A stretch of DNA of 64,000 bases. Source: Candidatus Latescibacterota bacterium. Lineage in GTDB: Bacteria; Latescibacterota; UBA2968; UBA8231. Positions within the stretch are counted from its first letter, which is position 1, and every line of letters begins with the position of its first letter. Shown here one piece after another: positions 10,455 through 40,814 of this stretch. The stretch is from positions 3,424,001 to 3,488,000 of the forward strand of contig OZ242005.1 in the NCBI GenBank assembly GCA_965204725.1, read 5' to 3'. A model generated the notes under the pieces. The model did not search any database, had not been told where the DNA came from, and saw only the letters and a program-made list of their open reading frames with translations. The position numbers were made by a program, and so were the translations under genes.

Positions 10455-10457
10455 CTC

Positions 10458-11315: not shown

Positions 11316-11346
11316 GGGAATTATACCCAGCGAGGACTTGGACCCT

Positions 11347-11691
11347 ATGAATGCCATTGAAACCCAGATCAACAACGCTACCATTGAGGCCATAGCGCGA
11401 CTGATCGTCGAACGCTTTGAGCCGGAACAAGTCATTCTCTTCGGCAGTCACGCCTGCGGAGAGGGGGGATCGCATAGCGATGTGGACCTGCTGGTCGTGC
11501 TTCGCACCGGCACAGAAAAACTACCGCCCGGCAATCCAATCCGTCGAGCGATTGCCGAGCGTTTCGTCCTGCCCGTTGATGTCCTTATCCGCTCGCCGGA
11601 AGTTCTCGCCGAACAGCGCAATGACCCATATTCCTTGATGCACCAAGTGCTAAAAGAGGGAAAGGTATTGTATGAGCGGCACGTTGCCTGA
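11347..11691 (+). CDS. Minimal nucleotidyltransferase (MNT antitoxin family)
   Basis: VILFGSHACG...SDVDLLVV and C-terminal LKEGKVLYE. Confidence 0.85.
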   Translation: MNAIETQINNATIEAIARLIVERFEPEQVILFGSHACGEGGSHSDVDLLVVLRTGTEKLPPGNPIRRAIAERFVLPVDVLIRSPEVLAEQRNDPYSLMHQVLKEGKVLYERHVA

Positions 11692-11773
11692 ACGGGACTG
11701 GTTCGATAAGGCAAATCAAGATTTGGAGATGGCGCGTCGGGCGTTGGGTCCGAAAACACCTTCTCATCTATGA
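11672..11773 (+). pseudogene. Truncated HEPN-domain gene
   Basis: Overlaps the MNT stop; MSGTLPERDWFDKANQDLEMARRALG matches the HEPN first helix (W..KA..DL..A); stops after 33 aa. Confidence 0.7.
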
Positions 11774-11799
11774 CCTAATGAAAATGAAGAGAGGCTGTT

Positions 11800-12714: not shown

Positions 12715-12750
12715 TCCTGACGAGTCGCAATAACTTTAAGGAGGTGTAAG

Positions 12751-13140
12751 ATGAACGAACAGCTTCTTCATGGACACGAATTGTCGCTAGAGCTGGAATG
12801 GATGAGATGCTGGGGCGATGTCTGGTGCAATCTCAACCTTGTAAACCTAAACCATGAGTATTTCCACAAGGACGTCTCTGGCGTCTATATAATTTGGCAC
12901 GGAGGACCAGACCCCAAGGTGGTGTACGTCGGTCAGGGAAATATCAGGGATCGCATAGCCGAACACCGGAACGATCCAGAGATACAGCGATATGATTCTC
13001 TAGAGCTTTATGTCACTTGGGCACCAGTACCCAAGGAATACCAAGACGGTGCAGAAGCGTCCTTGGCTAAGCGATGGTCTCCAATAGTCGGCGAACGCTA
13101 TCCAGACGCCCTGCCCATAAAGGTAAACTCTCCGTGGTAG
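12751..13140 (+). CDS. Stand-alone GIY-YIG nuclease-domain protein
   Basis: AAGGAGG RBS; SGVYII...VYVGQG.IRDRIAEH. Confidence 0.75.
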   Translation: MNEQLLHGHELSLELEWMRCWGDVWCNLNLVNLNHEYFHKDVSGVYIIWHGGPDPKVVYVGQGNIRDRIAEHRNDPEIQRYDSLELYVTWAPVPKEYQDGAEASLAKRWSPIVGERYPDALPIKVNSPW

Positions 13141-22526: not shown

Positions 22527-24775
22527 TTAGTAGTTTAAGGAGAAACTGGCCCCGAAGTATATGGAGCGGCGGAAATTGGTGGTACGCGGTTGGCGTTGGG
22601 TATAGTCAATGCTGTAATCGTAGTCGAGCACGTTGGCGCGGTTGAGCAGGTTGCCGATGGCCAAGTAGAAAACGGCTTGGTGGCCGCTACCAAAGAACAG
22701 CACGTAACTCAACTGCCCATCCAGCTCTTGAAACGACGGCAGACGCTGTGAGCCGACCGGCCCTCTATGGGGAGGTAGTAATTTTGGTCCGCTACTCGAA
22801 TGGCATCGATAACAGGGGTAATGGGCCGACCGGTGGCGTGTCTTAGGGTCAGGCCGCCGCTGAGTGCGCCGACGAGTCGCGCTTTGGCGACCAAGGTCAG
22901 GTTGTGGGTAATGTCAAAGGGCGAAGGGGCCACTTCGTACTCCATATCCATCCCATTATAGCGCACCTGCTCTCGGCGCGAGCGCAGCAGACTGTAGGCC
23001 ATCCACCCGCTCAAGCGCGTATTGAGAAAAGCGCCGTACTTGAGGAACAAATCGGCCCCCGAGGCCCGGCCCTCGCCTGTGTTGGCAACATGGACCGGAG
23101 CAGGATGGTCAATGACGAGGTTGCGATACGGTTTGTAGTAGAGTTCGAGTCGAGCGGTGAAGTGGTCGCGCTCGTGGTGTAAGCCGCTTACCCAGTGCTG
23201 GGCGCGTTGGGCCTTCAGCTTGGGGTTGCCGCTGGTCGGATTGTACTCAAACGGCGCGGCGAATTGGTGATAGATGCCCCAAGCGAGCCGCACACTCGTG
23301 TACTTGGATAGCAGGTATCGCGCAGACAGGCGCGGATCTACGACAAAACGGCCGGATAGATCGTGGTGGTCGGTACGCACCCCAACTTGGGCGACGATGC
23401 GGCGCATGAGTCTAAAATCGGTTTCAACATAGGCCCCCGTGCGCCTAGTGCTATAGGAGGTATCGAACTCAAAGACCGCTGCCCCGGGGTCGAGAATCTC
23501 TCTCTGCGGAAAACTGCCCAGCAATCGGTTCGCACTGTGTTCGCTTTCGGCCCCCAAGCGCACAGCCTTATCAGTGCCGAGGGGACGTTCTAGATCGGTG
23601 CGAACTTTGAGGGTCCAGTCGCGGGGCGTCAAGTCTAGGTTGCCTAGCTGCTGCCGGGCATTGTAGCGGTTGAGCGAGGCACTGGTCTGGATGCTCCAAC
23701 TGGCCCACTCTTCTGTCCACTGGAGGTTGTGCAAATAGCTGTCCGTGCGGCTGCGATAAAGGCCATTGAAGGAAGGCTCGACGACTTTCACCCCGAGGCG
23801 GTTGTTGGAGTTGAAGTTGAATAGCTTGAGGCGTCCAGTCGGCGAGTATTGGTACACTAGGTTGAGATTGCCGTCGTACCCACGCGGGGTAGTGGTAAAG
23901 GTGTTGCGGTAACCATTGACGCGAAACAGGAGATCGGTAAAGCCGAGGTTGCCGGTGAAGCGCAGGCCGAGCTTGTCGTCTATCAGCGGCAGGTCCAGTG
24001 CAAGCGAGCCGGCCGCGAGGCCCAAACCGAGCGTATAGCGCCGTTGCTCGGGCATGTTTTGACTTTCCATGGACAGCACCGCAGAAAGCGCGTTGCCATA
24101 GCGCGCCGAGAACCCGCCGGTGGAAAAGACCGTGCCCTGTACCATAAAGGGAGAAATCGTGCCAAATACTCCGCCGGTGGGCGATTCGTATCTATAGGGA
24201 TGCACCACCGTGGCTTGATCGAGCAAAACAACGGTCTCGCTCACATCGCCCCCGCGCACAAAAAGACCGGCCCCGTCATCTACGGTGGCAACGCCGGGAA
24301 AGGTCTTGACCGCGAGAAAAATATCGGCCGAGGCCCCAGCCGTCGTCACTACGTCCAAAGGCGAGAGCGTGACGGTCTCATCCTCTCCGGTGGTATAAGT
24401 GCTCACTGAGACGACGGTTTCCCCGAGCTCGATGAGGGCGAACCTGAGTATTAAGCGAACCGTTGCGGTGTCGCCAGCGACTAAGTGCATGGTTTGCCGG
24501 GTAGGCTCAAAGCCGATGCAGGAGGCACTCAGGTCGTGTTGCCCGAGGTGGCGCGTGGAAAAGGCAAAGCGGCCGTCGCGCCCGGTTGTCGCGCCGGCTG
24601 TGGTCCCGACGATTTGTACATTGGCAAAGGCAACCGGCTGTCCAGTTTCATCGACGACCCGTCCCTGTACGAGGGCCACGCTCTCAGCAAAGGTTGGGCC
24701 GCCGTGCAGACCGACGAGCAGGAGAACCCAGAACAGGACCAGCGCGGCCTGTCGGGCGGTGCATCTTCTATCCAT
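22527..24775 (-). pseudogene. TonB-dependent receptor with a frameshift near 22760
   Basis: Carboxypeptidase-like N-domain and plug (LFVRGGD, GGFSARYGNALS). Adding one base near 22760 gives EGPVGSQRLPSFQELDGQLSY...GNLLNRAN...YFGASFSLNY, joining ORFs 22709..24775 and 22527..22712. Confidence 0.8.
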
Positions 24776-24781
24776 TGCGTC

Positions 24782-24990
24782 CTAATGGTCCAATCCCGGC
24801 AATAAGTGGTCTTTTACCCAGCCGTTGTTGGGGTTCACTTCAAGAGCTTTGACAAAGGCTTGCCGCGCCCCTTCGGGGTCGCCGGTCTCCTGACGCATGA
24901 TGCCGAGGTGGACACAGGCTTCGTCGTAGCCCCAAGAGGGTTGGAAGGGGTCGCGGATTTCCTCTTTGGCGAACAACTCAAGGGCTTGAT
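24782..24990 (-). pseudogene. 3' remnant of a TPR gene paralogous to 21718..22488
   Basis: QALELFAKEEIRDPFQPSWG...KALEVNPNNGWVKDHLLP aligns with RAAELFAREEPTDPIQPTWG...KALEIDPDFGWVKDVLLP; the 5' part is absent. Confidence 0.75.
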
Positions 24991-24998
24991 CCGGAAGA

Positions 24999-25700
24999 CT
25001 AGCCGATACTGCCTAGGGCAGCGGCGAAGGAAAGCCAAACAATCGTTATGATACCAACTCCAGCGTAGGCTTTGCGGCGATCAAACTGCCCGATAATAGA
25101 CAGGCCGAGACCAGTGATTACAACGCTCCAAACGACAAAGGGATCAATGAGAGACAATAAGTGCCCACTGAAGCTTCGGAGAGCCTCTTCGGAGAGGAAC
25201 ACCCCCAAGCCTATTTGCACTAGCGGTGTCTCTGTGGCCAATATTAGCAATGTCTTGACAATATGTTGGGGGATATTTATCAACCCCGCATAGACTACTA
25301 TGGTTAGGACTTGTCCGTAGGAGAGCAGGCCGCCTAGTAATTTACCCACCAGTAGGCAAAGCGCGGCAAATATAAAAATAAAAACGAAAAGCACAATAGG
25401 TGTAACGATCAGAGTACTAGCCTGCATGATGCCTTGGGTTCGGTATTGCTCCACTATCTTGCGCTCTTCGTCGGATATGCCCTGCATCCGTTGCTGCATG
25501 ACTTCTCGGTTGAATTCAGCCGTAAAGGGCAGGATAAGCACAGCGGCAATCGTGGCAACTACAACGTTCAAAGTAGCAGGCACAAGCCAGTCGGCAGCAC
25601 TGCGCTTGCGGGCGAGGGATTCAAAGGTTTCTCTCGGCGTGTAGAAGAGGCGAATCATGCGGTTGATGAGGCCGATTTCGGCTTGGGATGTAGGTTCCAT
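24999..25700 (-). CDS. Yip1-family membrane protein
   Basis: AAGGAGG RBS; LFYTPRETFESL N-terminal motif, about five TM helices, IDPF.VW motif. Confidence 0.8.
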   Translation of the reverse strand: MEPTSQAEIGLINRMIRLFYTPRETFESLARKRSAADWLVPATLNVVVATIAAVLILPFTAEFNREVMQQRMQGISDEERKIVEQYRTQGIMQASTLIVTPIVLFVFIFIFAALCLLVGKLLGGLLSYGQVLTIVVYAGLINIPQHIVKTLLILATETPLVQIGLGVFLSEEALRSFSGHLLSLIDPFVVWSVVITGLGLSIIGQFDRRKAYAGVGIITIVWLSFAAALGSIG

Positions 25701-25824
25701 GAAGACTCCTCCTTATTAAAAGAGATGAGTTTATCTCTATAACATCGTATTTACTAAAAACGTGTTTGACATATAGCAGACGAACCATAAACTAAAATGG
25801 GACCGAGGATTTTTCTAGTACCAA

Positions 25825-26628
25825 TTAAGGTTGAGCTGGTATAAAGGCTGATAGCTCCAGAGCCAAAACTGACATATTGCGTATAAAGTGGTATATAATG
25901 GAAGGATAAAGGGAGCGTGTTCCCTGATACAAAAAAAACGAAAGACTCTGTGTCATAAACGTAACGATAAATTCCCTTAGATGTTCCTCTGAAAACGGAG
26001 AGTAATGGTGGTAGCTGAAGATGAACGCGGTAATAGTGAAACCGAGAACGAACCCCAATCGATTTCTCAAAGCAGGGAATATCAGGCCGGTAAAATATGC
26101 CTCCTCTATAACAGGGGCAATCAGTAAAACGCGAACTGAGTGTGGAATGATAAGGAGAAATATAGTACGAGATTTTTCGTCCCAGTCGGCTTCCTCAGTC
26201 CAAGGTGTTAGAATGGGATTGGGATTTATTAAGTGGATATCAATTCCCTGGAGCTTCATGTAAAGGAAAAAGGCCAATACACTTACTCCGGATATCAACA
26301 ATAAAAAGTTAAATTTTAAAACGAACTTTTTTGATTCTCTGGGAATTTGAATGGACAATCCCAGTGTTTGGGTGTTTAGATCCTGTTTTTCTATTTTGGA
26401 GAATGCTACGACAACCAAAATAAGTAGAACATAAGGAATAGTACATAATAATACGAGAAGGTAGTCGCTCAAAGCGAATAGATTAAGTATAGTATCGACA
26501 GTATAGCGAAAGAAAAAGAACATAAAAATGGCTAGTAGAAAGGTAGAAAACATTCTACATCGTATATTTTCAAACTTTCTGGTAAATACGGAATAAATGT
26601 ATTGGTCCATTGTATGGATTTTTTTCAT
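25825..26628 (-). CDS. CPBP/Abi (CAAX protease-like) intramembrane metalloprotease
   Basis: APVIEEAYFTG, F..HH and SLYPSIIYHFIRN motifs; start uncertain (26628 follows AGGTG). Confidence 0.85.
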   Translation of the reverse strand: MKKIHTMDQYIYSVFTRKFENIRCRMFSTFLLAIFMFFFFRYTVDTILNLFALSDYLLVLLCTIPYVLLILVVVAFSKIEKQDLNTQTLGLSIQIPRESKKFVLKFNFLLLISGVSVLAFFLYMKLQGIDIHLINPNPILTPWTEEADWDEKSRTIFLLIIPHSVRVLLIAPVIEEAYFTGLIFPALRNRLGFVLGFTITAFIFSYHHYSPFSEEHLREFIVTFMTQSLSFFLYQGTRSLYPSIIYHFIRNMSVLALELSAFIPAQP

Positions 26629-26668
26629 GAATACACCTGCTTCTTCCATTAGTTGCTGGCGAAGACTT

Positions 26669-26704
26669 TGAGCTACCAGTCTCGATAAGGAGACTGGTAG
26701 CTCA
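26669..26704 (-). terminator. Perfect 15-bp hairpin downstream of the precursor gene (terminator or mRNA stabiliser)
   Basis: TGAGCTACCAGTCTC-gataag-GAGACTGGTAGCTCA; no U-tract on the minus (sense) strand. Confidence 0.7.
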
Positions 26705-26706
26705 TC

Positions 26707-27110
26707 CATTCACCATGTAGAGGTTGTGGGTTTCATCTAGGTTGGCTTCTTACTGATTTTGTTTGTTGTTTTTCAGGCTTCTTACGGATTGCGGGCGTAT
26801 GATGCTTCTCGGTCTTGCCTTGAAGACTCTAGGGTACCGTAGAGGGCCATCGCAGCAGCTGTGAGGGCGACGTCAGCCGCTAAAGCAATTCCTATTATTG
26901 CCCAAGGAATAGCTCCCCCTTTGATATCTCGAGCTTCAGAAGACGTAATAGGTTTTGAAACGATCTCACTGTTGCTCGGTGCGATACTATAGGCGCACAA
27001 ACCCAAGGCTGTCGCCAGAGCTGTTACACCTTTAGTTTTGATAAGTTTAGTCATGATGTTCTCCTTTCTTTAGGAAGAAGATGACAACCCTTACCTCCAC
27101 ATGGTGAATG
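26707..27110. repeat. 32-nt imperfect inverted repeat enclosing the precursor gene
   Basis: Arms 26707-26738 CATTCACCATGTAGAGGTTGTGGGTTTCATCT and 27079-27110 AGATGACAACCCTTACCTCCACATGGTGAATG. Confidence 0.85.
26782..27054 (-). CDS. Putative RiPP/bacteriocin precursor with double-glycine leader
   Basis: AAGGAG RBS; ITSSEARDIKGG fits LsxxELxxIxGG; hydrophobic 43-aa core AIPWAIIGIALAADVALTAAAMALYG...; adjacent to a C39 peptidase. Confidence 0.8.
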   Translation of the reverse strand: MTKLIKTKGVTALATALGLCAYSIAPSNSEIVSKPITSSEARDIKGGAIPWAIIGIALAADVALTAAAMALYGTLESSRQDREASYARNP

Positions 27111-27112
27111 TT

Positions 27113-27658
27113 TTATTTTTTTGTCAATATCAAAATCTCTCCTTTCCATATACGATTGAATGCCCCTTTTCCAATTCTGAGCCTGCCAATGGCTGGATCT
27201 CTCAAGATGACCTCACCATGTTCATCGATTCGGTCTAACACCGCAAAGTGATCATCCTCAATAAAGACCACTGCCGGAAGCGGTTTGCTTTCTAGGTCAT
27301 CTATATTTAGTCTCCAAGCTTCAGCATGTACTCCTTGACTTTCGGCGTATTTCATCAGGTCGAATAAGGAAGAACCTGTCTCGTCCAGTCTAATCATGTC
27401 TTCAATATCTGTAAGATCTTGGTCTATACCTAGGCTATCCAAAACCATTTTAAGAGCTACAGGACCACAATTCATTTTACGTGTCTGTAGAATGACTCCT
27501 TCTGTCCCTTCGTATTCCGCACCTTTCAACCATGCCGCCAAGTTACGGTATATGGTTTCACTCGTAATGGATACGGCGACTAATTGCAAGCTAGAAGCAA
27601 AAAAGATGACTAATACTATTGCCGCTCCAATCGTTAATTTACTTTTCCAAAGCGTCAT
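27113..27658 (-). CDS. Stand-alone C39 cysteine peptidase with N-terminal TM or signal segment
   Basis: LQTRKMNCGPVAL (Gln, Cys), DHFAVL (His), LRDPAIG (Asp); no ABC domains. Confidence 0.9.
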   Translation of the reverse strand: MTLWKSKLTIGAAIVLVIFFASSLQLVAVSITSETIYRNLAAWLKGAEYEGTEGVILQTRKMNCGPVALKMVLDSLGIDQDLTDIEDMIRLDETGSSLFDLMKYAESQGVHAEAWRLNIDDLESKPLPAVVFIEDDHFAVLDRIDEHGEVILRDPAIGRLRIGKGAFNRIWKGEILILTKK

Positions 27659-27676
27659 ACTTGATATAAATTATTA

Positions 27677-30226
27677 CTATCCTTTTGCGAAGGTATCGTC
27701 TGTGATATTACACTGTAGTGCTGGTTCCTGAACAGTCTTTATCTTTTCTTCGACTCGATTAGCATAGTCATACATATCTATTCCGACGAAAATTTTTGAT
27801 GCCATCATCCACAAAGCAATAGCTTTTGCTTTTGACTCTTTTTGGGCAGCCACATCTCCCATACCTGTATAGGCAAGTCCTTGTCCTAGTTCGTCACCTA
27901 TCCTTTTGCATATAGACAGAGCTCTACCATAACAAGCTTCAGCTTCACTCCATTGTCCTCTAAGCTGATGTATCTCGCCCAGACTAGCAAGTCCGTAGGC
28001 GGATCCCTTTTCGTCATCCTCAGCTTCGTATATCCCCAGTGCAGTCCTCTGCTCTTGGTACGCGTCTTCATATTGTCCGCATTGGATATATACGAGACTT
28101 AAAGTAGTTCGGGCTGTAGCAATAGCTTGCTGATTAGGCGAGTCTGGAGTAAGGCGTAGGTAATCGCATAAGAATTCCTTGGCTTTATCAAATTTTTTAC
28201 TATGAGCATACAATTTTCCGAGAGATAAATAGCACTCATTCACATCGGATGACATACCTATACGTTCAAATAGACCTATCGAGTGATGCAGGTAGGATTC
28301 TGCCAGAGGGAAATCTCCGCGATAGAAATGTACATTCGCTAGTATTTTATATGAGTACGCTTTTCCCTTTTCATCCGCCAAGCTTTGGTTAGCCTCTAAG
28401 GCAGCTTTGCCGTACTCTAGTGCTTTTTCCATATTTCCCATTAGAAGGTGTATCGAAGAAAATAATCCATAATGTAATGCCAATCCCTCTTTTCTATTCG
28501 CCTTTTTGTCTATATCAATAGCCTGTTCCAGTAGAGTATGTGCTTCGTAAATACGGCCTTGGATTTTTCTCAAATTTGCAAGCGAATTGTACTGGTTAGC
28601 AATCCCCTCGGAGTCTCCGATTTCTTTGTAAATAGCTAAAGATTCCTCGTAAAGTTTCTCTGCTGAATTCAAGTCGTCTTTTAGAAGATGCACAGTACCC
28701 AAGTTGCTAGTAACTAAGGCATAATCTTCTCGACAACTTATTTTTTTGTGAAGACTCTGTGCTTTTATATAAAAATCCTCAGCTTCGGCGAGATTTCCTT
28801 GTAGCTGCGTGATAAATCCTTTGCAGGTATATCCTACAGCTAGCTTCCTCTTACTTTTATCATCCCCAGTTTGTGAAAAAATTGATATGGCCTCATCATA
28901 GCATTGACTCGCCTTATCTAATTCGCCTTTCAGCTCGCAAACCTTACCTTGGGAGATCAGTATGTTAGCCAATCCTGTAGTTGTTCCACCCCGAAGCCGA
29001 TTAACTTCTTTGGCCAATTCGATTTGAGATAAGGCAGATTCTAGACGACCGTTCTGCCAGTGCTCGTCAGCAGAGGCTAAAATAATTTCCCATTCTTCAG
29101 GATCACCTTGCTGATCAACCCGTTTGGCTACCTCGCTTTCAGTAGGGCTAAATTTGCAATGAGTAGGAAGCTCGGTCTCTAGGTTGAGCTGTGGGAGCAC
29201 ATCCAAGACCTCTTGATACTCTTTCCTGTCTGTTGCAGAGATCGTTCGATAGATATGGTCAAATTCAATCAGACTGTCTATAACTGACTCCTCTGGAAGA
29301 AAAGGATTAGGCCACAGATGCGCCCACCAGAAGTGGATCAGACGCACCAAGGGATCGCTATGTTTGCAGGCTATGTACTCAACCGCGGCGTATCGCTTCA
29401 CGCTTTCTGCTTTTGCCTTCTCAGGATCGGAGAAATTATGAGGATGGTACAGGTGATAAGAAGAGGCTTGGACACTGATAAATTGTCCACCTGTCGCCCC
29501 TAGGCGGTAGCCAAGTTCCCACCCTTCACAGAAAGGTATGGCATCATCGAATCCCCCTACTTTTTCTAGCAGCTTTAACGGTATGGCCATATTGTGAGGG
29601 TATAACCCAATCCAGCCTAGGGCCGGTTCTGCGACAGTTTCGTAAAGATCGTGAAATTCTCTCTGTATAGTACGGACTTCTTCAAACGGATAGCCTCCTT
29701 CCACTGCTTTTTCGATAATACTATCGAACTCATTGCACACCATACTCTCTGTGACAATCATCTTATCTCGATGTAGAGCCAAGAACCGGCGCAGTGAATA
29801 AGGCAGTGAGGTATCGAAAGGTGAACCTGTCTGAGGATCTTGGAAATACTCTAGGTCGGGAAGGACATATTGACAGCCACATAATACTGATTTCTGACCA
29901 TTCTCTTTATAGGCTTCTAAGTAGCACTGGAGTAGTTCCGGGGCTGGTAGTGCATCTCCATCTAGGAAAACGACTAATGAACCGCATGCTCGCTCAACCC
30001 CTCTATTTCGTGCTCGACACCGGCCCTGATTCGTTTCAAAATATTCAACTTTGAGATTGTGCATCTTCAGTGATTCTAGCATTGCTCCAGTGCCGTCGGT
30101 AGAACCGTCGTCAACCACTATTACTTCAAAACGATCACTTGGAATATTCTGATTTTCTAAGCCACTTAACACGAGACGGAGGCGTTCTTTCTGGTTATAC
30201 GTGGCTACGATTACACTTGTATCCAT
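27677..30226 (-). CDS. Family 2 glycosyltransferase fused to a TPR array
   Basis: SVIVATYN, EVIVVDDGSTD, ARNRG, FLDGD, GGFDD, then many TPRs; ATG overlaps the upstream stop (TAATG). Confidence 0.9.
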   Translation of the reverse strand: MDTSVIVATYNQKERLRLVLSGLENQNIPSDRFEVIVVDDGSTDGTGAMLESLKMHNLKVEYFETNQGRCRARNRGVERACGSLVVFLDGDALPAPELLQCYLEAYKENGQKSVLCGCQYVLPDLEYFQDPQTGSPFDTSLPYSLRRFLALHRDKMIVTESMVCNEFDSIIEKAVEGGYPFEEVRTIQREFHDLYETVAEPALGWIGLYPHNMAIPLKLLEKVGGFDDAIPFCEGWELGYRLGATGGQFISVQASSYHLYHPHNFSDPEKAKAESVKRYAAVEYIACKHSDPLVRLIHFWWAHLWPNPFLPEESVIDSLIEFDHIYRTISATDRKEYQEVLDVLPQLNLETELPTHCKFSPTESEVAKRVDQQGDPEEWEIILASADEHWQNGRLESALSQIELAKEVNRLRGGTTTGLANILISQGKVCELKGELDKASQCYDEAISIFSQTGDDKSKRKLAVGYTCKGFITQLQGNLAEAEDFYIKAQSLHKKISCREDYALVTSNLGTVHLLKDDLNSAEKLYEESLAIYKEIGDSEGIANQYNSLANLRKIQGRIYEAHTLLEQAIDIDKKANRKEGLALHYGLFSSIHLLMGNMEKALEYGKAALEANQSLADEKGKAYSYKILANVHFYRGDFPLAESYLHHSIGLFERIGMSSDVNECYLSLGKLYAHSKKFDKAKEFLCDYLRLTPDSPNQQAIATARTTLSLVYIQCGQYEDAYQEQRTALGIYEAEDDEKGSAYGLASLGEIHQLRGQWSEAEACYGRALSICKRIGDELGQGLAYTGMGDVAAQKESKAKAIALWMMASKIFVGIDMYDYANRVEEKIKTVQEPALQCNITDDTFAKG

Positions 30227-32700
30227 TATATACACTCCACCCTCAGATGATATTGGCATTTCAGATTTGGTATATAGTTCCACCCATCTTTACCTTCTAT
30301 TAGGCAGGAGGGCAGTGTCTTAGCAGAATTGGAAAACATTAGTCGTTGGTTATCTAAGTGGCCAAAATAGTAAGAATCAAAAGATCGAGTATTTCGTTTT
30401 ATGTATGTTTTTAATTTAAGATCTTCGACATTGTATTCGTTTATAGAAACTTCGCCGATAGCCATACTGAGAAATTCAACGGGTATCCAGCCTGATTCTT
30501 CTAGATAAATTTCGGCCCACGTGTGGCCTACCATAGGCTCGTCTATACTTCTGTATTCGTACACCTGTCCAGAAATTGGAAATCCCAACAAGGTTCCACA
30601 TCTCTCTCTAGCAGGAATACCGACCATTCTACACAGAGCTATAAAGGTTCTCGCAAAGTGAATACAATTGCCACCGATGTTATTCAGCAAAATAGCCGAA
30701 CTATCGGCCAGACCCACCGCAGGTATCTTAGTCTTCCTGAATTTTTTAGTTCTGATTAGTTTGCTGTAGAAGGCCCAAGCCAGTTCTTTTTTATCGCAAG
30801 GCGCGGATGCTTCGAGTATCTCGGAGAGCACTTGCTCCAGTTCTGGCAGTTTGTCTAAGACCTCGTCGGTATATAAATACTTCGACCTCTCCCAGTCCGA
30901 GAGGGTGTGTTCGCCTCTACCTTCAGCATTATACTCGCTGACTTCAAGTTCGCAAGTATATGAAAAATTTGCCGAATTTGATTTTACAGTGAAGGGATAT
31001 GCATAGAAGAATCCAAACTTGCTGCGTAAACAGTATTTCATATTCTCTGGGAAACAGTCGATTAGACTAACGGCCTTTTGGTCTTCTGTCTCCAAAGGAT
31101 ATGGTATAAAAGCTCTTAACTGGTGATCCGGTTTTTCAGTGAGATGTATGTCGTAGGAGTAGGTCATTTTATAACGCTGGGTATGAGATTTTGAACGTAT
31201 GTTACCTGTTTCATCTATATCGAAAAAGACACGTCGTCTTTGATCGCAGGCCTTGTATTCAGCCTCAAAAAATCGAGCCTCTCTTTCGTATAGCCAGTTC
31301 CAAGAGTCTATTCTATCGAAGAAATACTGATTGCCCTGTCGCCAGTGAGGTATCCCTTTTTTAATACCTTGCCTTAGCATTTCACGCAGCGATTCAATTG
31401 ATAGGGTGGAAGGAGTAGTACCGTCGAGTTGCTGTAAGAATTCATTTTCACCTACCAGAAATTTAGGATCGTAACGGAGTGCCGTATAACGGTTTAAAAA
31501 ATAATCATCCACCCAGTCTGCTACTACGTCTTTTTCACACCATCGCTTCAATAAATTGGCAATAGAATCCAACTGAATCTCCATTTTATCCCAGACATCT
31601 AGAGTTCTCCCTAGTATTTGTGTAATATTGTGATAATTAAATCTATCCGGATCTATTTTCAGACCTAAACTAACCGCTTCGAGTCTATCGAGATGGAGAT
31701 CCTGATCTAAAGTGGTTGCTATACCGATAGGCAAAACTCCATGAAGTAAAGCACTATATAGGGTCTCTATATCTAAATCTCCAATTATTATATGTATTCT
31801 TTCCCATGGCGGATCTCTATAGATTTCATCGACAAACTCTATGTGGCTTTCAGGTCGCTTTACTCCTCGGGTAGATTCTACTAGTAAGCGATAAGGGATC
31901 TCCATCCCGGATGTATTCTGTCTCAGTATATCTTCTTTTAGAAGATTTCTGGGATCTTTTATATAGACGACAGGAAATGACTTATCCTGTTTGCGAAGCA
32001 TCTTTCGTCTGCCTCTTTTTTTATTGGTGGTCGGCAATAGAGGCCCTATATAGTGGAACCCATCAGCACCGAAATCTAGCGTGGGATATAGTTCGGGTAT
32101 ATCGGCAATTAGATAGTACTTCTTCTTCTTCTTAATTTCGCAGGCTTTATTTTTTAAGTACTCTGCAAACGTGTCTCTTGATGATAAGACAGATAGAGTC
32201 TGAGGAGGAATACTATGTCCTATTCGGTCGTATCCTTGAATTATTTCAACTTCGTCAATCCCTTCCAAGTGTGCTGCAATTGAAGCCGTTGGTTTCAAGG
32301 AATGGATAATCAGATCAGGCTTATACATCTCAATCAAAGACCGTTCGGATTTTACGCAAGAGTCGATCCATTCAGTATCGCATGATCTATAGCCCGATAG
32401 CTCAATCTGGTCTCTGTGGATCTCTAGAGGCAGCGTTTTAACACTGCATATTTCTTCGCCTTTTTGGGAACACTGATCCACACAAGGCCCATCTCCTGCT
32501 AGCCGAACCTCATAGCCTCGACAGCGTAACTGTTGGGCGATCTCACAAGCTCGCCTAGTATGAACAGCACTACAGCCATGGAATAGGACCATAATAGATA
32601 ACGCGCTACGGTCTAATATATTGGTTTCCGATGCTCTTCTAAGATTACTGCTCCACCACAATAACCTTGAGACTAATTTTTCTCTGATAGATGTAATCAA
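30226..32700 (-). CDS. GT-B (GT1-like) glycosyltransferase fused to a transglutaminase-like domain
   Basis: N-terminal H.RR...IAQQL..RGYEV, PDLII and ALLHGV.....LDQ....RLE motifs; C-terminal GNCIHFARTFIALCRMVGIPAR, GHTWAEIY, GWIPVE and YYFGHLD. Confidence 0.8.
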   Translation of the reverse strand: MITSIREKLVSRLLWWSSNLRRASETNILDRSALSIMVLFHGCSAVHTRRACEIAQQLRCRGYEVRLAGDGPCVDQCSQKGEEICSVKTLPLEIHRDQIELSGYRSCDTEWIDSCVKSERSLIEMYKPDLIIHSLKPTASIAAHLEGIDEVEIIQGYDRIGHSIPPQTLSVLSSRDTFAEYLKNKACEIKKKKKYYLIADIPELYPTLDFGADGFHYIGPLLPTTNKKRGRRKMLRKQDKSFPVVYIKDPRNLLKEDILRQNTSGMEIPYRLLVESTRGVKRPESHIEFVDEIYRDPPWERIHIIIGDLDIETLYSALLHGVLPIGIATTLDQDLHLDRLEAVSLGLKIDPDRFNYHNITQILGRTLDVWDKMEIQLDSIANLLKRWCEKDVVADWVDDYFLNRYTALRYDPKFLVGENEFLQQLDGTTPSTLSIESLREMLRQGIKKGIPHWRQGNQYFFDRIDSWNWLYEREARFFEAEYKACDQRRRVFFDIDETGNIRSKSHTQRYKMTYSYDIHLTEKPDHQLRAFIPYPLETEDQKAVSLIDCFPENMKYCLRSKFGFFYAYPFTVKSNSANFSYTCELEVSEYNAEGRGEHTLSDWERSKYLYTDEVLDKLPELEQVLSEILEASAPCDKKELAWAFYSKLIRTKKFRKTKIPAVGLADSSAILLNNIGGNCIHFARTFIALCRMVGIPARERCGTLLGFPISGQVYEYRSIDEPMVGHTWAEIYLEESGWIPVEFLSMAIGEVSINEYNVEDLKLKTYIKRNTRSFDSYYFGHLDNQRLMFSNSAKTLPSCLIEGKDGWNYIPNLKCQYHLRVECI

Positions 32701-32983
32701 TTGAAATATACCTCTGGTTGGATGATCTGACTAGAATTGGTGAAGCACAGCTAAGCTTCAGCGGGAGTAAAAGCGAAAAGTGTGCCGAGAAGTGCGTCCA
32801 GATAAACTGAGCCGTCGCTGGTATTCTGCTAAGTTCTTGGAATCAAGCAAGTTAGGTAATTCATATTTTTTATTGCCGCAGTTTCCGCCCACCTAGTCAA
32901 TACGCCAAAGCGTATCACCTCTGAAACACTACCGTTCCCAAGCGTTACAAAAAGTCGCCGCCTTGGCCCCTGTCGATGATTGA

Positions 32984-33012
32984 TTGACAACTGCATTTAT
33001 GTTCACTATATT
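32984..33012 (+). promoter_or_regulatory. Sigma-70 promoter candidate for parE-parC
   Basis: TTGACA-17 nt-TATATT. Confidence 0.65.
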
Positions 33013-33145
33013 AGACAGACGGAGAAATTAGCAGCCGCACCCAAGAGAGCGACTTCCCTGCTTCTGTTTTCTCCGCATTTTAACTCCCACTGTCCGCCGG
33101 TCGCGTCCCTCCCCCCTAAACGCGGCGCGTTCTACATTACCTCTT

Positions 33146-34978
33146 ATGGAAGCAATGGCTAAGACTGCAACCAATGGCCACGCCAACGGCAAGGCCACGT
33201 ACGACGAAAGCAAGATCAAGACCCTCTCTTCACTCGAGCACATCCGCCTGCGGACCGGCATGTACATCGGTCGGATCGGCTCGGGTGCTGACCCCGACGA
33301 CGGCATCTATATATTGCTCAAGGAGGTCATCGACAACGCAGTCGATGAGTTCATCATGGGATGTGGCAAGCAGGTCGACGTCGAGATCGACGAGGGGCGG
33401 GTCAAGGTCCGCGACTACGGCCGCGGCATTCCCCTCGGCAAAGTCGTCGAGTGCGTCTCGGTCATCAACACCGGCGCCAAGTACAACGACGATGTCTTCC
33501 AGTTCAGCGTAGGGCTCAACGGCGTCGGCACCAAGGCTGTCAACGCGCTTTCGGCCCATTTCGTCGTGCGCTCCTACCGCGACGGCCGGTGCGCCGAAGT
33601 GCTCTTTGAGCGCGGCGAGCTAAAGAAGCAAAAGAAGAGCCGAGCACCCAACGAGCCCGACGGCACGTACGTCGAGTTTTTGCCCGATCCCGTCATCTTT
33701 GGCGAATGCGCCTTCAACCACGAATTCGTCGAGCGCCGGATGTGGAACTACGCCTGCCTCAACCGAGGCTTGCGCCTGTACTTCAACCGCCAAAAATTCG
33801 AGTCCAAACAGGGCCTTTTCGACCTTCTCAAAAGCGAGGCCGGCGACTCGGTGCTCTACCCGCCCGCATACTACAAGGGCCAGTACCTCGAGTTTGCCTT
33901 CACGCACGTCGATAGCTACGGCGAGTCCTACCGCTCCTTTGTCAACGGCCAATACACGGCCGACGGCGGCACCCACCAGAGCGCGTTCCGCGAGGGGGTG
34001 CTCAAGGGGGTCAACGAATTTTACAAGAAAACCTTCAACGGCGTTGATGTCCGCGACGGGGCCTTTGGCGTCGTCGCCGTCAAGGTCAAGGAGCCGGTCT
34101 TTGAGTCGCAGACCAAAAACAAGCTGGGCAATACCGACGTCCGCAGTTGGATCGTCAACCAGACCCGCGAAGCCATCGTCGATTTCCTCCACAAAAATCG
34201 GGAGACCGCGCAAAAGCTCGAAGCGCGCATTATCCACAACGAGAAGTTGCGGAAGGAGCTGAACGCGGTTAAAAAGGAAGCCAAGGAGGCGGCGCGGCGC
34301 ATCGAGATCAAAATTCCCCAGCTCAAGGACTGCAAGTTTCACAAAGGCGACAAGAAGCGCGGCGAGGAGTCCATGATCTTCATCGCCGAGGGTCAATCGG
34401 CGGCTGGCTCCATCGTCTCCTCACGCGACCCGGAGACCCAAGCCATCTTCACGCTCAAGGGCAAGCCGCAAAACCTCTGCGGCAAGACCCGCGCCTCCAT
34501 CTACAAAAACGAAGAGCTATACAACATGATGATGGCACTGGGCATTGAAGAGGACGTGGAAAATCTGCGCTACGACCACGTCGTCTTGGCTACAGACGCC
34601 GATGAAGACGGCTTCCACATCCGCACCTTGCTCATGACTTTCTTCCTCACGTACTTCGAGGAGCTGGTCACCAGCGGCCACCTCTACATTTTGGAGACTC
34701 CGCTCTTCCGGGTCCGCAACAGGCGACAGACCCTCTATTGCTACGACCAGCGCGAGCGCGAGCGCGCCGAGGGCCGGCTCAAGGGCAACATCGAGGTCAC
34801 TCGCTTCAAGGGCTTGGGCGAAATCTCCCCCAAAGAATTCGGGCAATTTATCAACGGCGACATGCGCTTGGTCAAGGTCGCCGTGCGCTCGCTAGACACC
34901 GTGCCGCAGACCCTCTCCTTTTACATGGGCAGAAATACCCCGGAACGCCGCGACTACATCATGGAGCACTTAGTCTAA
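33146..34978 (+). CDS. parE: DNA topoisomerase IV subunit B
   Basis: EVIDNAVDE, DYGRGIP, GLNGVG, EGQSA, DADEDG, RFKGLGE; start could be 33155. Confidence 0.9.
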   Translation: MEAMAKTATNGHANGKATYDESKIKTLSSLEHIRLRTGMYIGRIGSGADPDDGIYILLKEVIDNAVDEFIMGCGKQVDVEIDEGRVKVRDYGRGIPLGKVVECVSVINTGAKYNDDVFQFSVGLNGVGTKAVNALSAHFVVRSYRDGRCAEVLFERGELKKQKKSRAPNEPDGTYVEFLPDPVIFGECAFNHEFVERRMWNYACLNRGLRLYFNRQKFESKQGLFDLLKSEAGDSVLYPPAYYKGQYLEFAFTHVDSYGESYRSFVNGQYTADGGTHQSAFREGVLKGVNEFYKKTFNGVDVRDGAFGVVAVKVKEPVFESQTKNKLGNTDVRSWIVNQTREAIVDFLHKNRETAQKLEARIIHNEKLRKELNAVKKEAKEAARRIEIKIPQLKDCKFHKGDKKRGEESMIFIAEGQSAAGSIVSSRDPETQAIFTLKGKPQNLCGKTRASIYKNEELYNMMMALGIEEDVENLRYDHVVLATDADEDGFHIRTLLMTFFLTYFEELVTSGHLYILETPLFRVRNRRQTLYCYDQRERERAEGRLKGNIEVTRFKGLGEISPKEFGQFINGDMRLVKVAVRSLDTVPQTLSFYMGRNTPERRDYIMEHLV

Positions 34979-36967: not shown

Positions 36968-38014
36968 ATGGAGAACTTGACAGTGCCTAATCCTAAAACA
37001 GTAGAGGAACTGCAGGAGAAAGCTGCAATTTATTGGCCATCTGAAATCGCCAAGCAAGAGAAGAGTTCTAGTATTATTCCATTGCTCCTTAAAACACAAG
37101 ACAGTTTTATAAGCGTACTCCATCTTGCATCTAAAGACCCTTATGATTGGACTAAAATTTTAGATTTTGTTGAAGATCTCTATCCAAACCTTTTTCTAAA
37201 ACATCTTTGTATTTTATCCGACATCGGCGGAGAAAACTTAAAACGCTTTGCAGCAGACCTTCCGAATAAATTTAAGTGTGAGGATTTCAGATTTAACTTT
37301 CGTGGCAAAAATTACGATTCTAAGATGGAATCTCTTTTTTCTGGCAAGAAATGGAGTAATTCCAGCCTAGGACTTGATGGAGAAGGTCTCCAAAGACGTT
37401 TTGGCCTTACAGACGCCATTATTGATGTAAGTACCCTGATATTATTTGGCAGTTTGTCAACTAATGACTTCTTGCCAGAAGAAGTCGAAGATAAATGTAT
37501 TATCGGTTCAATGCTCGGCGACAGGTCGAGATTGGAAAAATACATTAAAGAACGATATATTTGGGTCAGTCGAATTACTGGAGGAGCAACGTCCAATAGA
37601 ATGGGACATCTCGCTCAGAATTATGTAAAAGAGCGATTGGCCCAATATCTCCCAAGTTGGAATTTTTCACAAACTACGATTCCAGGCGTCAGTCAAAATG
37701 AGGGTAGAACAGATATAAAATTTGACATCGTAGGAAAAAGCCCTAGTGGTAATTATTGGGGAATTGAAGTAAGTTTCCAATTTACGACAAACAGTGTAGT
37801 AGAAAGAAAAGCCAAACTTGCCCCTGATAGACAAAGGCTTCTTCGTGAAAAAGGGCATAAAATTGCGTATGTAGTTGATGGTGCCGGTAATTTTGAACGT
37901 CGATCTTTTGTGAAGGACCTAATCGACTACAGCGACTGTATTATCAACTTTAGCGACAACGATATTAGACGTCTTGCAGAAACTATGGAAGGAGACGATG
38001 AAAATGGCTCATAG
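36968..38014 (+). CDS. Type II restriction endonuclease, BanI/HgiCI-like
   Basis: NLFLKHL, ERYIWVSRITGGA, FD...IEVSFQFTTNSVVERK and AYVVDGAGNF resemble R.BanI as I recall it; AT-rich; overlaps a methyltransferase gene. Confidence 0.8.
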   Translation: MENLTVPNPKTVEELQEKAAIYWPSEIAKQEKSSSIIPLLLKTQDSFISVLHLASKDPYDWTKILDFVEDLYPNLFLKHLCILSDIGGENLKRFAADLPNKFKCEDFRFNFRGKNYDSKMESLFSGKKWSNSSLGLDGEGLQRRFGLTDAIIDVSTLILFGSLSTNDFLPEEVEDKCIIGSMLGDRSRLEKYIKERYIWVSRITGGATSNRMGHLAQNYVKERLAQYLPSWNFSQTTIPGVSQNEGRTDIKFDIVGKSPSGNYWGIEVSFQFTTNSVVERKAKLAPDRQRLLREKGHKIAYVVDGAGNFERRSFVKDLIDYSDCIINFSDNDIRRLAETMEGDDENGS

Positions 38015-39758
38015 GAGTGAAAACTGCAAACCTCTAGATATATCAACAAGGGCATTTGCAGATTTTCAAAAATTATCGTCAAAGTCATCACGTCCAGATG
38101 TATGGCTTTTCCATTTGACTACAGAAGTCGATTTCGACGATAAAGTTTCTATGGAATTTTTTAATCAAGATTTTGACGGTTTTCTTGAAAAATTGCCTGA
38201 AGAAAGTACAATTTGTTTTTTAACAAACCCTCACACAGCTTGCTATGTAATAGAAAAACTTCAGAACCGCGTCAATTTCAAACTTTGGATTGCTGTCAAA
38301 CGGAAGAAAAAGATACTGAGATTGGACGCTTTACCAGATGACCATATTGCTCTTTTAGTTTTTACCCGTTACAAAGATTCTTTAAGACACAACAAGACTC
38401 AAATAGAATATACGTACTGTCCTGCCTGCAAGAAAACAACAAAGGACTACGGCGGCAAGAAACATATTTATAGCCCCTATGGGACGCTTATGTCTGATAT
38501 TTGGCGAGACATTTCTTATGATAATGACGCAGCACCAAGAGCTATTCTGAGTAGGCTAAAGGACCTCTTTGGACACGAACCTTATCGCGAACTGATTTAC
38601 TGCGATGTCAGGAACTTTCTTACATGTTCCAACAAGAGAAAATTCCACTCTTCAAATGGAATAATTAATAACCCCGGCGAGAGTCGTTTACTTAATGGAG
38701 ATTGTTTAGATGTCATTAAAACTATACCTGAAAATTCTGTAGATTTTATTTTTGCTGATCCTCCATATAATATAAAAAAGAAATATGATAACTGGAATGA
38801 CGCCCAAGATATTAGTAATTACTTTTCATGGTGTGACCAATGGATAGCTGAATCAGCTAGAGTCTTAAAGCCCGGTCGGACTTTTGCAATTATAAATATC
38901 CCCCTCTGGATCGTCAGGCATTTTTCGTTCGCGAAAAGCATTTTAGACTACCAAGATTGGATAGTTTGGGAGGGATTGAGCTTACCCGTCAGAAAAATTA
39001 TGCCGGCACACTACGGAATAATTTGCTTTAGTAAAGGTCGGCCAATCGAAATTGCCAATCACGAGAAGAAAGCCAGTTGGACAACTCCCCAAGACTTCAT
39101 GAGCCTCAAACCATGGTATTGTGTTAGAACCTCTTGTATCAAGAAGAGAAATATAAACAAAATTACCGACCGGCAGCCGATTGGAAATTTGTGGTGGGAC
39201 ATCCATAGACTAAAACACAATTCAAAAAGAGTTGATCACCCATGTCAACTACCTCCATCATTGATGAGACGACTTATCCATACCTTTACCAAAGTAGGAG
39301 ATCTCGTTTTAGATCCTTTTAATGGTGCCGGTACAACAACCTTAACATCGGAAATGCTTGGAAGAAAATTTATTGGAATTGAACTGTCAAATAAATATCA
39401 TGCAATTGCCGAACAGAGACATTTAGAGCTGCAAAAAGGGAGGGATCCGTTTGCAAAAAATGGCACTACTCCAAAAGCAAAGAATAGCAGAGTTGCAAGA
39501 CTACAAAAACAGAAGTATGAAGTACCCAAAAAAACACTACAGATCGAAGTCAAGAAGATCGCGATCAAACTGGAACGCAGGCCCACTAGAGAAGATATTA
39601 TTAGACTCAGCAAATACCCAATTCGTTATTTTGACGAATACTTCATCGACTGGGGAGAGGTGTGTAGTGCCGTTGGCGACAAAGGAATGACTGAAAACTT
39701 CTCTCAATCCATTAGCAATCAACCAGATGATCAACAGATGGAACTCTCTTTTAGATAG
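38004..39758 (+). CDS. Beta-class N4/N6 DNA methyltransferase with N- and C-terminal extra domains
   Basis: FADPPYN (motif IV) precedes HPCQLP and VLDPFNGAGTT (motif I). Confidence 0.9.
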   Translation: MAHRSENCKPLDISTRAFADFQKLSSKSSRPDVWLFHLTTEVDFDDKVSMEFFNQDFDGFLEKLPEESTICFLTNPHTACYVIEKLQNRVNFKLWIAVKRKKKILRLDALPDDHIALLVFTRYKDSLRHNKTQIEYTYCPACKKTTKDYGGKKHIYSPYGTLMSDIWRDISYDNDAAPRAILSRLKDLFGHEPYRELIYCDVRNFLTCSNKRKFHSSNGIINNPGESRLLNGDCLDVIKTIPENSVDFIFADPPYNIKKKYDNWNDAQDISNYFSWCDQWIAESARVLKPGRTFAIINIPLWIVRHFSFAKSILDYQDWIVWEGLSLPVRKIMPAHYGIICFSKGRPIEIANHEKKASWTTPQDFMSLKPWYCVRTSCIKKRNINKITDRQPIGNLWWDIHRLKHNSKRVDHPCQLPPSLMRRLIHTFTKVGDLVLDPFNGAGTTTLTSEMLGRKFIGIELSNKYHAIAEQRHLELQKGRDPFAKNGTTPKAKNSRVARLQKQKYEVPKKTLQIEVKKIAIKLERRPTREDIIRLSKYPIRYFDEYFIDWGEVCSAVGDKGMTENFSQSISNQPDDQQMELSFR

Positions 39759-39821
39759 GGCTACACGGCCAGCCATTCTCCTTCTCGCCAGAAGGCAAGC
39801 GCATCAGAAAGGATCGACTCC

Positions 39822-40814
39822 ATGTACGTAGGGACTCAGTACTTCGGCACCTCAAAGACCGAGATGGAATTCCTCGTCCGGCACGGCGTGACCCACTTCG
39901 ACGCCAGAGTCGAGGACCTAAACGTCGATACCCTCGTCCGGCACCGCGAGGCCGCGGCCACCTACGGGGTGGAACTGGAAATGGTCCACGTCGCGCCGCT
40001 CGACAACATCGGCCTAGCCAAAAACCCCGAGCGCGAGCGCGACCTCGACACGCTGTGCCAATACATTGAAAACGCCGGTAAGGCCGGGCTGCGCGGCCTC
40101 AACTACAACTTCTGCATCCTGCGCGCCGATGGGGCCGGTGGGCTGGTGCAGCGCACGGCATCTCGCCCGGGGCGCGGCGGGACGACCTATAGCTCGTTCC
40201 GGCTCGCCGAATACGACAACGACACGCGCTACGCGGCCGGTGAGGTCAGCCGCGGAGAGGCCTTTGAGCGGGCGGCTTATATGTTGGAGCGCATCATGCC
40301 CGTTGCCGAGCAATGGAAGGTCCAGATGGCGTGTCACCTCAACGACCCGCCCGCGCCGGTCCTGAACGGAGTGGAAAAGTGGAATTGGCCCGTCTTTGAG
40401 GGGCTGAAACGCTTCAGCGAACTGGTTGACAGCCCGTACCACGGCTTCAACTTCTGCTGCGGGGTAGCGGCGGAGGGCCTAGAAAATCCGGCCACAGAAC
40501 TGCCGCCAATCGTCCGGTATTTTGCCGAGCGAAAAAAGATATTCAACGTGCATTTTAGGAACATCCGCGGCGGTCTGCACGACTTCTGCGAGACCTGGCC
40601 CGACGAGGGCGATGTCAATATGTACGAGGTCGCCAAGGTCCTACACGAAGCGGGCTATCCCTACATGCTGATGCCCGACCACGCGCCGAGCCATCCCGAG
40701 GACAAGGCTCCGGCCGGCGTTTCGGTCCGCGTCAACCAAGCTTGGGCCTACCAGTTCGGCTATATCAAAGCCTTTATCCAAGCACTCGAATACGAGCGAC
40801 CATCTTCGACCTGA
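39822..40814 (+). CDS. uxuA: Mannonate dehydratase family protein
   Basis: YNF, CHLNDPP, FCCG, HFRNI, PDEGDV, MPDHAP and FGYIKA motifs. Confidence 0.8.
   Translation: MYVGTQYFGTSKTEMEFLVRHGVTHFDARVEDLNVDTLVRHREAAATYGVELEMVHVAPLDNIGLAKNPERERDLDTLCQYIENAGKAGLRGLNYNFCILRADGAGGLVQRTASRPGRGGTTYSSFRLAEYDNDTRYAAGEVSRGEAFERAAYMLERIMPVAEQWKVQMACHLNDPPAPVLNGVEKWNWPVFEGLKRFSELVDSPYHGFNFCCGVAAEGLENPATELPPIVRYFAERKKIFNVHFRNIRGGLHDFCETWPDEGDVNMYEVAKVLHEAGYPYMLMPDHAPSHPEDKAPAGVSVRVNQAWAYQFGYIKAFIQALEYERPSST

Follow-up and report, generated by a model that had tools for sequence, protein, structure and literature searches.

Organization of the Locus

The locus under study lies on the minus strand of the window, i.e., the whole stretch of 64,000 nucleotides of Latescibacterota DNA that was analyzed, and its numbering is used below unless a genome contig is named. 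The following features were found:

24999..25700, minus strand, Yip1/YknW-like membrane protein (PF04893 and a sub-cutoff YknW match)
25825..26709, minus strand, CPBP/Rce1-like intramembrane protease (PF02517; longest ORF)
26669..26704, minus strand, hairpin of 14–15 bp without a U-tract, just 3' of the 3' arm below; not listed as terminator-like
26707..26738, minus strand, 3' arm of a long-range RNA duplex, whose arms enclose the precursor ORF
26782..27054, minus strand, pre-pro-peptide (precursor) gene, 90 aa: signal-like residues 1–23, pro-segment 24–47 ending in GG, core 48–90
26785..26913, minus strand, core peptide, 43 aa: Ala-rich hydrophobic helix, central Asp (D61), polar tail
26914..26949, minus strand, double-glycine leader motif, I(-12)...E(-8)A(-7)...I(-4)KGG
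26986..27054, minus strand, predicted Sec-type signal peptide with a probable signal peptidase I site A21-Y22-S23 / I24
27079..27110, minus strand, 5' arm of the long-range RNA duplex (32-nt inverted repeat, 340 nt between the arms)
27113..27658, minus strand, stand-alone C39 peptidase, 181 aa: N-terminal anchor 13–31, Q58/C64/H137/D154
27677..30283, minus strand, fusion of a GT2 glycosyltransferase and a TPR array, 868 aa, no hydrophobic segment
30226..32700, minus strand, fusion of a GT1-type (GT-B) glycosyltransferase and a transglutaminase-like domain, 824 aa (PF01841; C679, H726)

The C39–precursor pair is located within a low-GC stretch (~25.7–32.8 kb; 40–47% GC versus about 60% in the flanks), and the order of transcription is GT1-transglutaminase, GT2-TPR, C39, precursor, CPBP/Rce1 and Yip1. 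A contig from another study spans positions 25840–32778 with 44 differences and no gaps (likeness 90); thus, the reading frames do not stem from faulty assembly. Island borders are suggested by loose ends at 24988 and 32738. An earlier sequence-only reading of this DNA had described the precursor and the C39 peptidase, and both ORFs (90 and 181 aa, minus strand) were found exactly where it had placed them. That reading mentioned neither the genes for CPBP and Yip1 nor the RNA duplex, and it did not recognize the family beyond this locus.

Precursor Peptide

Read directly from the sequence, the N-terminus of the precursor is basic and then hydrophobic, ITSSEARDIKGG occupies residues 36–47, and the 43-aa core contains two Thr, three Ser and one Gln and no Cys or Lys, all as described earlier. 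Nine homologues with 55–96% identity were found. Residues E40, A41, D43, I44, K45, G46 and G47 are invariant in all 10 precursors (leader end E-A-x-D-I-K-G-G), while the start of the core varies; Gln80 of the core is invariant in 10/10 close homologues. In addition, AAGGAG/AAAGGAG is conserved upstream of the gene.

Signal peptides were called using heuristic n/h/c anatomy together with the -3/-1 rule. According to this heuristic, a signal peptidase site of the type [AV]-x-[SC] is present in 16 of the 17 clade precursors (AQQ in the remaining one), with small residues at -3 and -1 and a large, variable residue at -2. The h-region of the query is weak (KD11 1.97 versus 2.7–3.5 in Cys-rich relatives). 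The leader matches the hydrophobic-position rule at I(-12), I(-4) and GG, with Ala instead of Leu/Met at -7. Ala occupies this position throughout the query clade, Leu or Met mostly does so in the Cys-rich relatives, and most PCAT substrates carry Leu, Val, Ile or Met there (PMC12457901).

Modeling of the precursor led to a low-confidence model (pLDDT 58.5) with helices 3–23, 38–45 and 48–88. Approximately 26 mostly apolar residues follow the GG of the query, and an acidic residue lies within the helix in all 17 clade cores. The best 19-residue core window, evaluated with a position-independent scale, was unfavorable for membrane insertion in 16 of 17 clade cores (+1.77 for the query versus -0.12 for the C39 anchor).

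A Pfam search revealed no match for the query precursor and none above the cut-off for 30 related proteins. Precursor matches in NCBIfam were below the cut-offs except for the leader of locus L049, which passes TIGR01847 (16.9; cut-off 15.7). No core reached the cut-off of a bacteriocin family in Pfam or NCBIfam; the query core showed a sub-cutoff match to the class IIb bacteriocin model TIGR03949 (14.2 bits; cut-off 21.5). A match of the precursors to BLB8/JUQZ-1 was rejected since it covers the N-terminal signal-like region only; for that comparison, the available part of PMC11747845 shows a signal peptide and no leader. Reading the precursor as a lipoprotein cleaved by signal peptidase II was also rejected: there is no lipobox, Leu or Phe precedes Cys20, and Cys20 itself is lost in L043 and P0028. 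In one homologue of 121 aa (P0025), the unit of pro-segment, GG site and core start occurs twice in tandem.

C39 Peptidase

The peptidase matched PF03412 with 97.9 bits over residues 55–181. The catalytic Cys/His/Asp set, described earlier as intact, is indeed so: Gln58, Cys64, His137 and Asp154 are invariant in 16/16 close homologues, and the Cys, His and Asp in 29/29 rows of the wider family. The N-terminal hydrophobic segment noticed in the sequence-only reading is the only one in the protein (residues 13–31; KD19 2.46, next best 0.77), and a single N-terminal anchor was found in 30/30 family C39s. Net charge is higher on the N-side of the anchor in 21 of these 30, with no N-side excess in the other nine; in the query the bias is slight (K/R 2 versus 2, net 2 versus 1).

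The best PDB match was 6mpz, the double-glycine protease domain of a PCAT (E 1.5e-6). Similarly, the protein scored higher on the PCAT model (63.4 bits) than on the FapD equivalog model (41.4 bits, far below its cut-off of 330), and a FilB match was also sub-cutoff (33.8 bits). A complex prediction for C39 residues 31–181 and precursor residues 24–58 gave 0.45 versus 0.02 for the best control; in the benchmark, 116 of 157 solved pairs attained the mark, as did 2 of 215 mismatched ones, and those that did so at 0.60 or less were 18 solved pairs and both of the passing mismatches. The runs shared at least 86% of contacts, with a partner pLDDT of at least 59. The predicted complex gives weak support to recognition of the GG leader, and likeness to solved PCAT–leader complexes may lie behind the pass.

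Of 30 other genomes of the genus, two carry a close stand-alone C39 and one more has a long PCAT-type match only. Database records assign the closest relatives to Ca. Latescibacterota and Poribacteria. Among plasmid records, 367 gave a match, and the ten listed were PCAT-type or unannotated.

Search for an Exporter

The genome (94% complete, about 10% contaminated) bears out the earlier statement that the pair lacks an exporter, the query C39 being its sole PF03412 match. An unfiltered six-frame search of the genome with the family profile revealed no further C39 below E 0.4. No PCAT was found: of the 11 ABC_membrane matches of the genome, the nearest lies 208 kb away, and the N-terminal Q-x5-CG motif is present in none of the 11. 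No type I HlyD in the genome reached the cut-off (best 44.6 bits versus 208.65). The C39 itself is a stand-alone ORF of 181 aa, not fused to an ABC transporter as in a PCAT. In related loci, none of the 118 nearest neighbor proteins scanned (of 233 called) matched ABC_membrane at E 1e-7, and stand-alone ABC ATPases were found in three loci (L038, L040 and L042).

A candidate exporter acting in trans (C1:2904607–2911746; an ABC pair, Yip1 and an HlyD-like protein) was rejected, as it is located ~545 kb away and its N-termini lack the C39 motif. Yip1 paralogues such as the one beside it are nearly genus-wide.

Related Cassettes

Related stand-alone, N-anchored C39s were found in Latescibacterota, Poribacteria, Gemmatimonadota, Bacteroidota, Ignavibacteria and Acidobacteriota. 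The family scans yielded 58 metagenome and 38 genome loci, of which 43 with long matches were analyzed. These were searched for an ORF of 55–135 aa with a basic and then hydrophobic start and a GG-type motif ending at residue 36–65. Of the 32 loci with at least 700 nt available, 27 have such an ORF at most 1.2 kb downstream of the C39 (24/29 once three duplicate loci were removed), as do 3 of 11 shorter loci. The background was three matches in 10.9 Mb of the query's own genome, namely the query itself plus two unrelated ORFs, and one in the flanks (671 kb), located next to a second C39; the contrast is inflated by the design of the pattern on these same loci. The pattern missed five of the 32 loci (L055, L061, L102, L107 and L108), and in L102, L107 and L108 precursors are visible that fail at position -8. 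At two positions left free in the parsing pattern, the residues agree with a GG leader: E or D was found at -8 in 23/31 leader rows and S or T at -11 in 21/31 (three of the 31 rows were misparsed). The signal–GG layout is kept across several phyla, and the cores diverge, being 21–52 aa long and highly variable.

In the phylogenetic tree, a branch (100/97) separated the 33 stand-alone C39s from 13 PCAT domains, and the six enzymes with Cys-free cores, query included, formed one clade (100/98). An even number of Cys was found in all 21 complete, correctly parsed Cys-containing cores (five truncated or misparsed rows were left out and five further rows are Cys-free), and nine aligned cores of relatives share four invariant Cys. 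Even counts fit disulfides formed outside the cytoplasm. In addition, the gene directly upstream in 15 related loci encodes a CxxC thioredoxin with an anchor like that of the C39 (CPHC in 8/15); these thioredoxins are ResA-like according to sub-cutoff NCBIfam matches, and MauE was found in L042 and L104. The combination of even-Cys cores and an anchored CxxC thioredoxin points to periplasmic maturation in the relatives. An upstream thioredoxin was not found in L101 and L106, nor in any locus of the Cys-free clade; since that clade is a single branch, the joint loss of thioredoxin and Cys counts as one event.

Several further observations were made on the Cys-rich loci and other relatives. The precursors of L041, L048, L098, L100, L101 and L102 contain an extra leader Cys at -5 beyond the even core set. 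A CarboxypepD_reg–DUF5686 protein, a candidate for an outer-membrane step, is encoded after the precursor in six Cys-rich loci (L042:11490–13811, L048, L049, L101, L102 and L105), and an unannotated protein of 160–200 aa likewise recurs in Cys-rich loci. Two tandem precursor-like ORFs each are located in L040:1770–2339 and L110:10651–11323, and L102 contains two C39–precursor pairs, which suggests two-component or diversified products.

RNA Elements around the Precursor Gene

The 12-bp core of the long-range duplex is fully paired in 8/8 loci. One A-U pair is replaced by G-C in two related loci, and two positions vary between G-C and G-U, the G-U variants pairing on the mRNA strand only. A covarying duplex surrounds the precursor gene. 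An 18-bp helix between the intergenic stretches was matched by 0/3000 random genome windows and 0/3000 shuffles, and the region folds with z = -7.4. In the 3' hairpin, both sides have changed in 7 of 14 pairs across the eight loci; since the compared sequences also served to derive the structure, the controls of this comparison are biased in its favor.

None of the 18 Cys-rich loci scanned showed the long-range duplex; many of them have a 3' hairpin only. No RNA dataset for this DNA was among the sequencing runs listed. A search of Rfam over 24500–33200 gave one chance match only (E 0.23), and promoter and terminator scans were at chance level (16 versus 16.4 and 8 versus 6.5, respectively). 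We infer that the duplex could serve RNase III-type excision or stabilization of the precursor message; alternatively, it could act as a translational lock.

Neighboring Genes

The CPBP gene is located after the precursor in all five clade loci scanned (L043, L094, L095, L096 and L097). Its true start is probably later than that of the longest ORF (orthologues are 264–285 aa), and sub-cutoff matches to the MrtJ/MrtS sorting proteases were found. Yip1 matches occur near the C39 in 14 related loci and Yip1 paralogues in 29/30 genomes of the genus. Proteins of both kinds are typical of bacteriocin loci and have been linked to bacteriocin immunity. The CPBP protein is a probable immunity factor or second processing enzyme, and Yip1 probably an accessory or immunity protein.

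Neither glycosyltransferase protein contains a hydrophobic segment. The fold of the 824-aa protein matches natural-product GT1 enzymes (best E 4.4e-15); by eye, its residues ~418–473 resemble a small winged-helix domain. It has five matches in its own genome and occurs in 21/30 other genomes of the genus, versus 2/30 for the close C39. The other copies (G000 C1:366910–369387, 2113155–2115350, 2143415–2145937 and 4892733–4895228) are usually followed by GT2 and TPR genes and are located beside different small, apparently secreted proteins. This GT1-transglutaminase fusion, recurring in islands of the genus, is undescribed. In L043, L044 and L097, the C39, precursor and CPBP genes are present without the glycosyltransferase pair upstream, which makes the pair an accessory, roaming module rather than a core part of the cassette. 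Modification of the query core by these enzymes is possible but not supported.

Comparison with Known Systems

The cassette shares with PCAT/AMS systems (LahT, PCAT1 and ComA; class II bacteriocins and microcins) the Q/C/H/D of the C39, a leader with hydrophobic residues at -12 and -4, E(-8) and GG, and a short hydrophobic core. Unlike in those systems, its C39 has its own anchor and no transmembrane or ATPase domain, and the precursor has a Sec-like signal ahead of the leader and Ala at -7.

Four other systems were considered. FapD of Pseudomonas, a C39 exported by Sec, works in the periplasm and requires its catalytic Cys; the available part of the paper gives no target and suspects GG/GA sites (PMC5557850). 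Common to both are a stand-alone C39, presumably also outside the cytoplasm in the cassette, and partners exported by Sec, which in the cassette is a prediction (PMC5557850). Unlike FapD, the cassette C39 is anchored rather than signal-cleaved and is nearer to PCAT domains than to the FapD model. The island is not a Fap operon but consists of GT1-transglutaminase, GT2-TPR, C39, precursor, CPBP and Yip1; it encodes neither a FapF barrel nor amyloid subunits, and its cargo, a peptide of ~40 aa, has a near-canonical GG leader.

Sec-dependent class II bacteriocins are treated as having a leader type distinct from GG (PMC12648112). The cassette resembles them in its predicted Sec signal, the lack of a dedicated exporter and its immunity-like neighbors, and differs in its GG-ended second pro-segment, dedicated C39 and diderm hosts. 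Its predicted mature peptide does not directly follow the signal, as a conserved 24-aa GG pro-segment intervenes. The SdpC/YknW system of Bacillus subtilis includes a Sec signal, a pro-segment, a ~40-aa hydrophobic mature peptide and a Yip1-type resistance protein. The signal (as predicted), the pro-segment, the peptide size and the Yip1-type protein are shared by the cassette. SdpC is not known to be matured by a C39 at GG.

C-x6-C is the spacing of glycocin cores. It is also found in the four-Cys cores of relatives, whose thioredoxins are a further glycocin-like trait. A GG-type leader, a C39 and a GT2 in the cluster likewise recall glycocins (sublancin and glycocin F; PMC12457901). Unlike glycocin clusters, the cassettes have no PCAT, and GT2 and four-Cys cores never occurred together in the loci seen. 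Glycocin membership of the query was rejected: its core has no Cys and hence no two nested disulfides. A profile of the nine four-Cys cores matched no glycocin in the PDB with E up to 10 and has no solved relative, so the glycocin-fold idea goes no further than this resemblance. Neither SunS nor ThuS was among the 30 PDB matches listed for the GT2-TPR protein. The cassette would work like a GG-leader bacteriocin pathway, yet it is not a PCAT system; its location would be that of FapD, and it is not a glycocin cluster.

The cassette is a real, conserved variant of double-glycine peptide maturation. No description of it was found in the titles and abstracts searched, which came mainly from openly accessible literature. 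FapD is a precedent for a periplasmic C39; the covarying RNA duplex that brackets the precursor gene and the roaming nature of the adjacent glycosyltransferase pair are new. One current mining pipeline, as described in the available text, drops context-based clusters without a transporter (PMC12648112). With such a filter, and with GG and Sec leaders treated as alternatives, cassettes of this kind may be missed or their mature peptide misassigned. The target and recognition rule of periplasmic C39s were left open in the available part of the FapD paper (PMC5557850), and a 181-aa enzyme with a synthesizable 67-aa pro-peptide makes the question testable. Leader removal is another possible use for a stand-alone C39 with tolerance of Ala at -7; a review of RiPP proteases calls for enzymes of this type (PMC10885120).

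Proposed Maturation Route and Alternatives

The sequence-only reading had proposed Sec export followed by cleavage at GG outside the cytoplasm, which may also hold the peptide inert up to that point. Comparison supports this order of events through the conserved signal–GG layout, the anchored C39s, the absence of a PCAT, the even-Cys cores with thioredoxin and the FapD precedent. The protease is anchored in the membrane and is not part of an exporter; therefore, the peptide is probably activated only after leaving the cytoplasm. We consider it likely that the precursor passes through Sec export, a signal peptidase cut and periplasmic C39 cleavage at GG. The 90-aa pre-pro-peptide would be exported by Sec and cut by signal peptidase I after Ser23. 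A single N-in anchor would tether the C39 to the inner membrane and place its catalytic domain in the periplasm, where the enzyme would bind the leader helix (-12/-7/-4) and cut after Gly47. The freed 43-aa helical core would most likely be a membrane-active, bacteriocin-like peptide, from which CPBP and Yip1 would shield the producer. The duplex and 3' hairpin, through an RNase III-type cut or an exonuclease block, would probably provide an excess of precursor mRNA.

The bacteriocin-like nature of the product, suggested by the size and hydrophobicity of the peptide, the variable cores behind constant leaders, the island location and the CPBP and Yip1 neighbors, stands at about even chances. 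A transporter-free secreted-peptide cassette, with product, immunity and RNA role included, is the best explanation of the locus as a whole, and the balance tips moderately in its favor.

It is also conceivable, but rather unlikely, that the same route ends differently, with the core helix acting as a stop-transfer anchor (N out, C in). The mature core would stay in the inner membrane, and the GG cut would free the 24-aa pro-peptide or unmask the core for CPBP, as in a signaling or sorting module. The apolar run after GG, modeled as one long helix, is consistent with this, as are the constant position of CPBP after the precursor in the clade loci scanned and its resemblance to MrtJ/MrtS. This topology would also bring the cytoplasmic tail (Ser, Thr and the invariant Gln80) within reach of the glycosyltransferase/transglutaminase enzymes, which, having no hydrophobic segments, would be cytoplasmic. 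However, owing to the central Asp the core helix is only marginally hydrophobic and may slip through the translocon without halting there, and the insertion estimates given above weakly favor such a passage. The cores of relatives resemble disulfide-locked hairpins, cores vary behind conserved leaders, and the glycosyltransferase pair is missing in three loci. These points argue against the stop-transfer reading. In the secreted-peptide cassette, too, the core could be retained in the inner membrane rather than released.

A structural role of the peptide seems improbable. It would be a subunit, as proposed for FapD-type systems, whose GG pro-segment blocks early assembly until periplasmic cleavage leads to a filament or surface layer. 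FapD, the sole characterized periplasmic C39 found, serves fiber secretion (PMC5557850), and the sub-cutoff FapD and FilB scores are in line with this, but the C39 scores higher on the PCAT model. The RNA elements suggest a high precursor output, and the CarboxypepD_reg–DUF5686 gene of the six related loci is of an outer-membrane type, whereas the island has no FapF-like barrel or amyloid repeat, the cores are short and highly variable, and CPBP and Yip1 are typical of bacteriocin loci. A conventional route in disguise, with the C39 as a cytoplasmic split PCAT domain, a distant peptidase-less ABC exporter and an N-terminus that merely tethers the precursor, can draw on the 11 ABC_membrane matches, the weak charge bias of the query and the PCAT-like sequence of the C39 domain, but is very improbable given the distance of those genes, the lack of a type I HlyD at the cut-off, the conserved -3/-1 site, the much stronger signal-like N-termini of relatives, the thioredoxins and even-Cys cores, which point outward, and the separation of stand-alone C39s from PCAT domains in the tree.

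Beyond the secreted-peptide cassette itself, the family could represent an undescribed "pre-pro" double-glycine antimicrobial class of diderms that does without ABC exporters. In Cys-rich members, the core would be folded by the co-encoded anchored thioredoxin before activation by the C39; in the Cys-free branch, it would instead be glycosylated by the neighboring glycosyltransferase module; and the RNA duplex would excise the precursor message from the operon transcript and amplify the supply. Taken with all of these parts (Sec, periplasmic C39, disulfide or glycosyltransferase modification, RNA-amplified supply), this scenario is tentative and more doubtful than not.

Other Observations on the Genome and Window

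Upstream of one glycosyltransferase module, G000 C1:374168–374374 (minus strand) encodes a 69-aa protein that starts like a signal peptide and is Cys-rich in its C-terminal portion; two anchored proteins of ~197 aa and a 798-aa permease-like gene are located near it. In the window, a TonB-dependent receptor ORF (22527–24775) has a host-like GC content and lies outside the likely island border. It encodes 688 aa versus 744 aa in L095, is followed by short ORFs and is possibly frameshifted. Further low-GC stretches with ORFs of their own are located at about 10001–13000 and 37001–40000.
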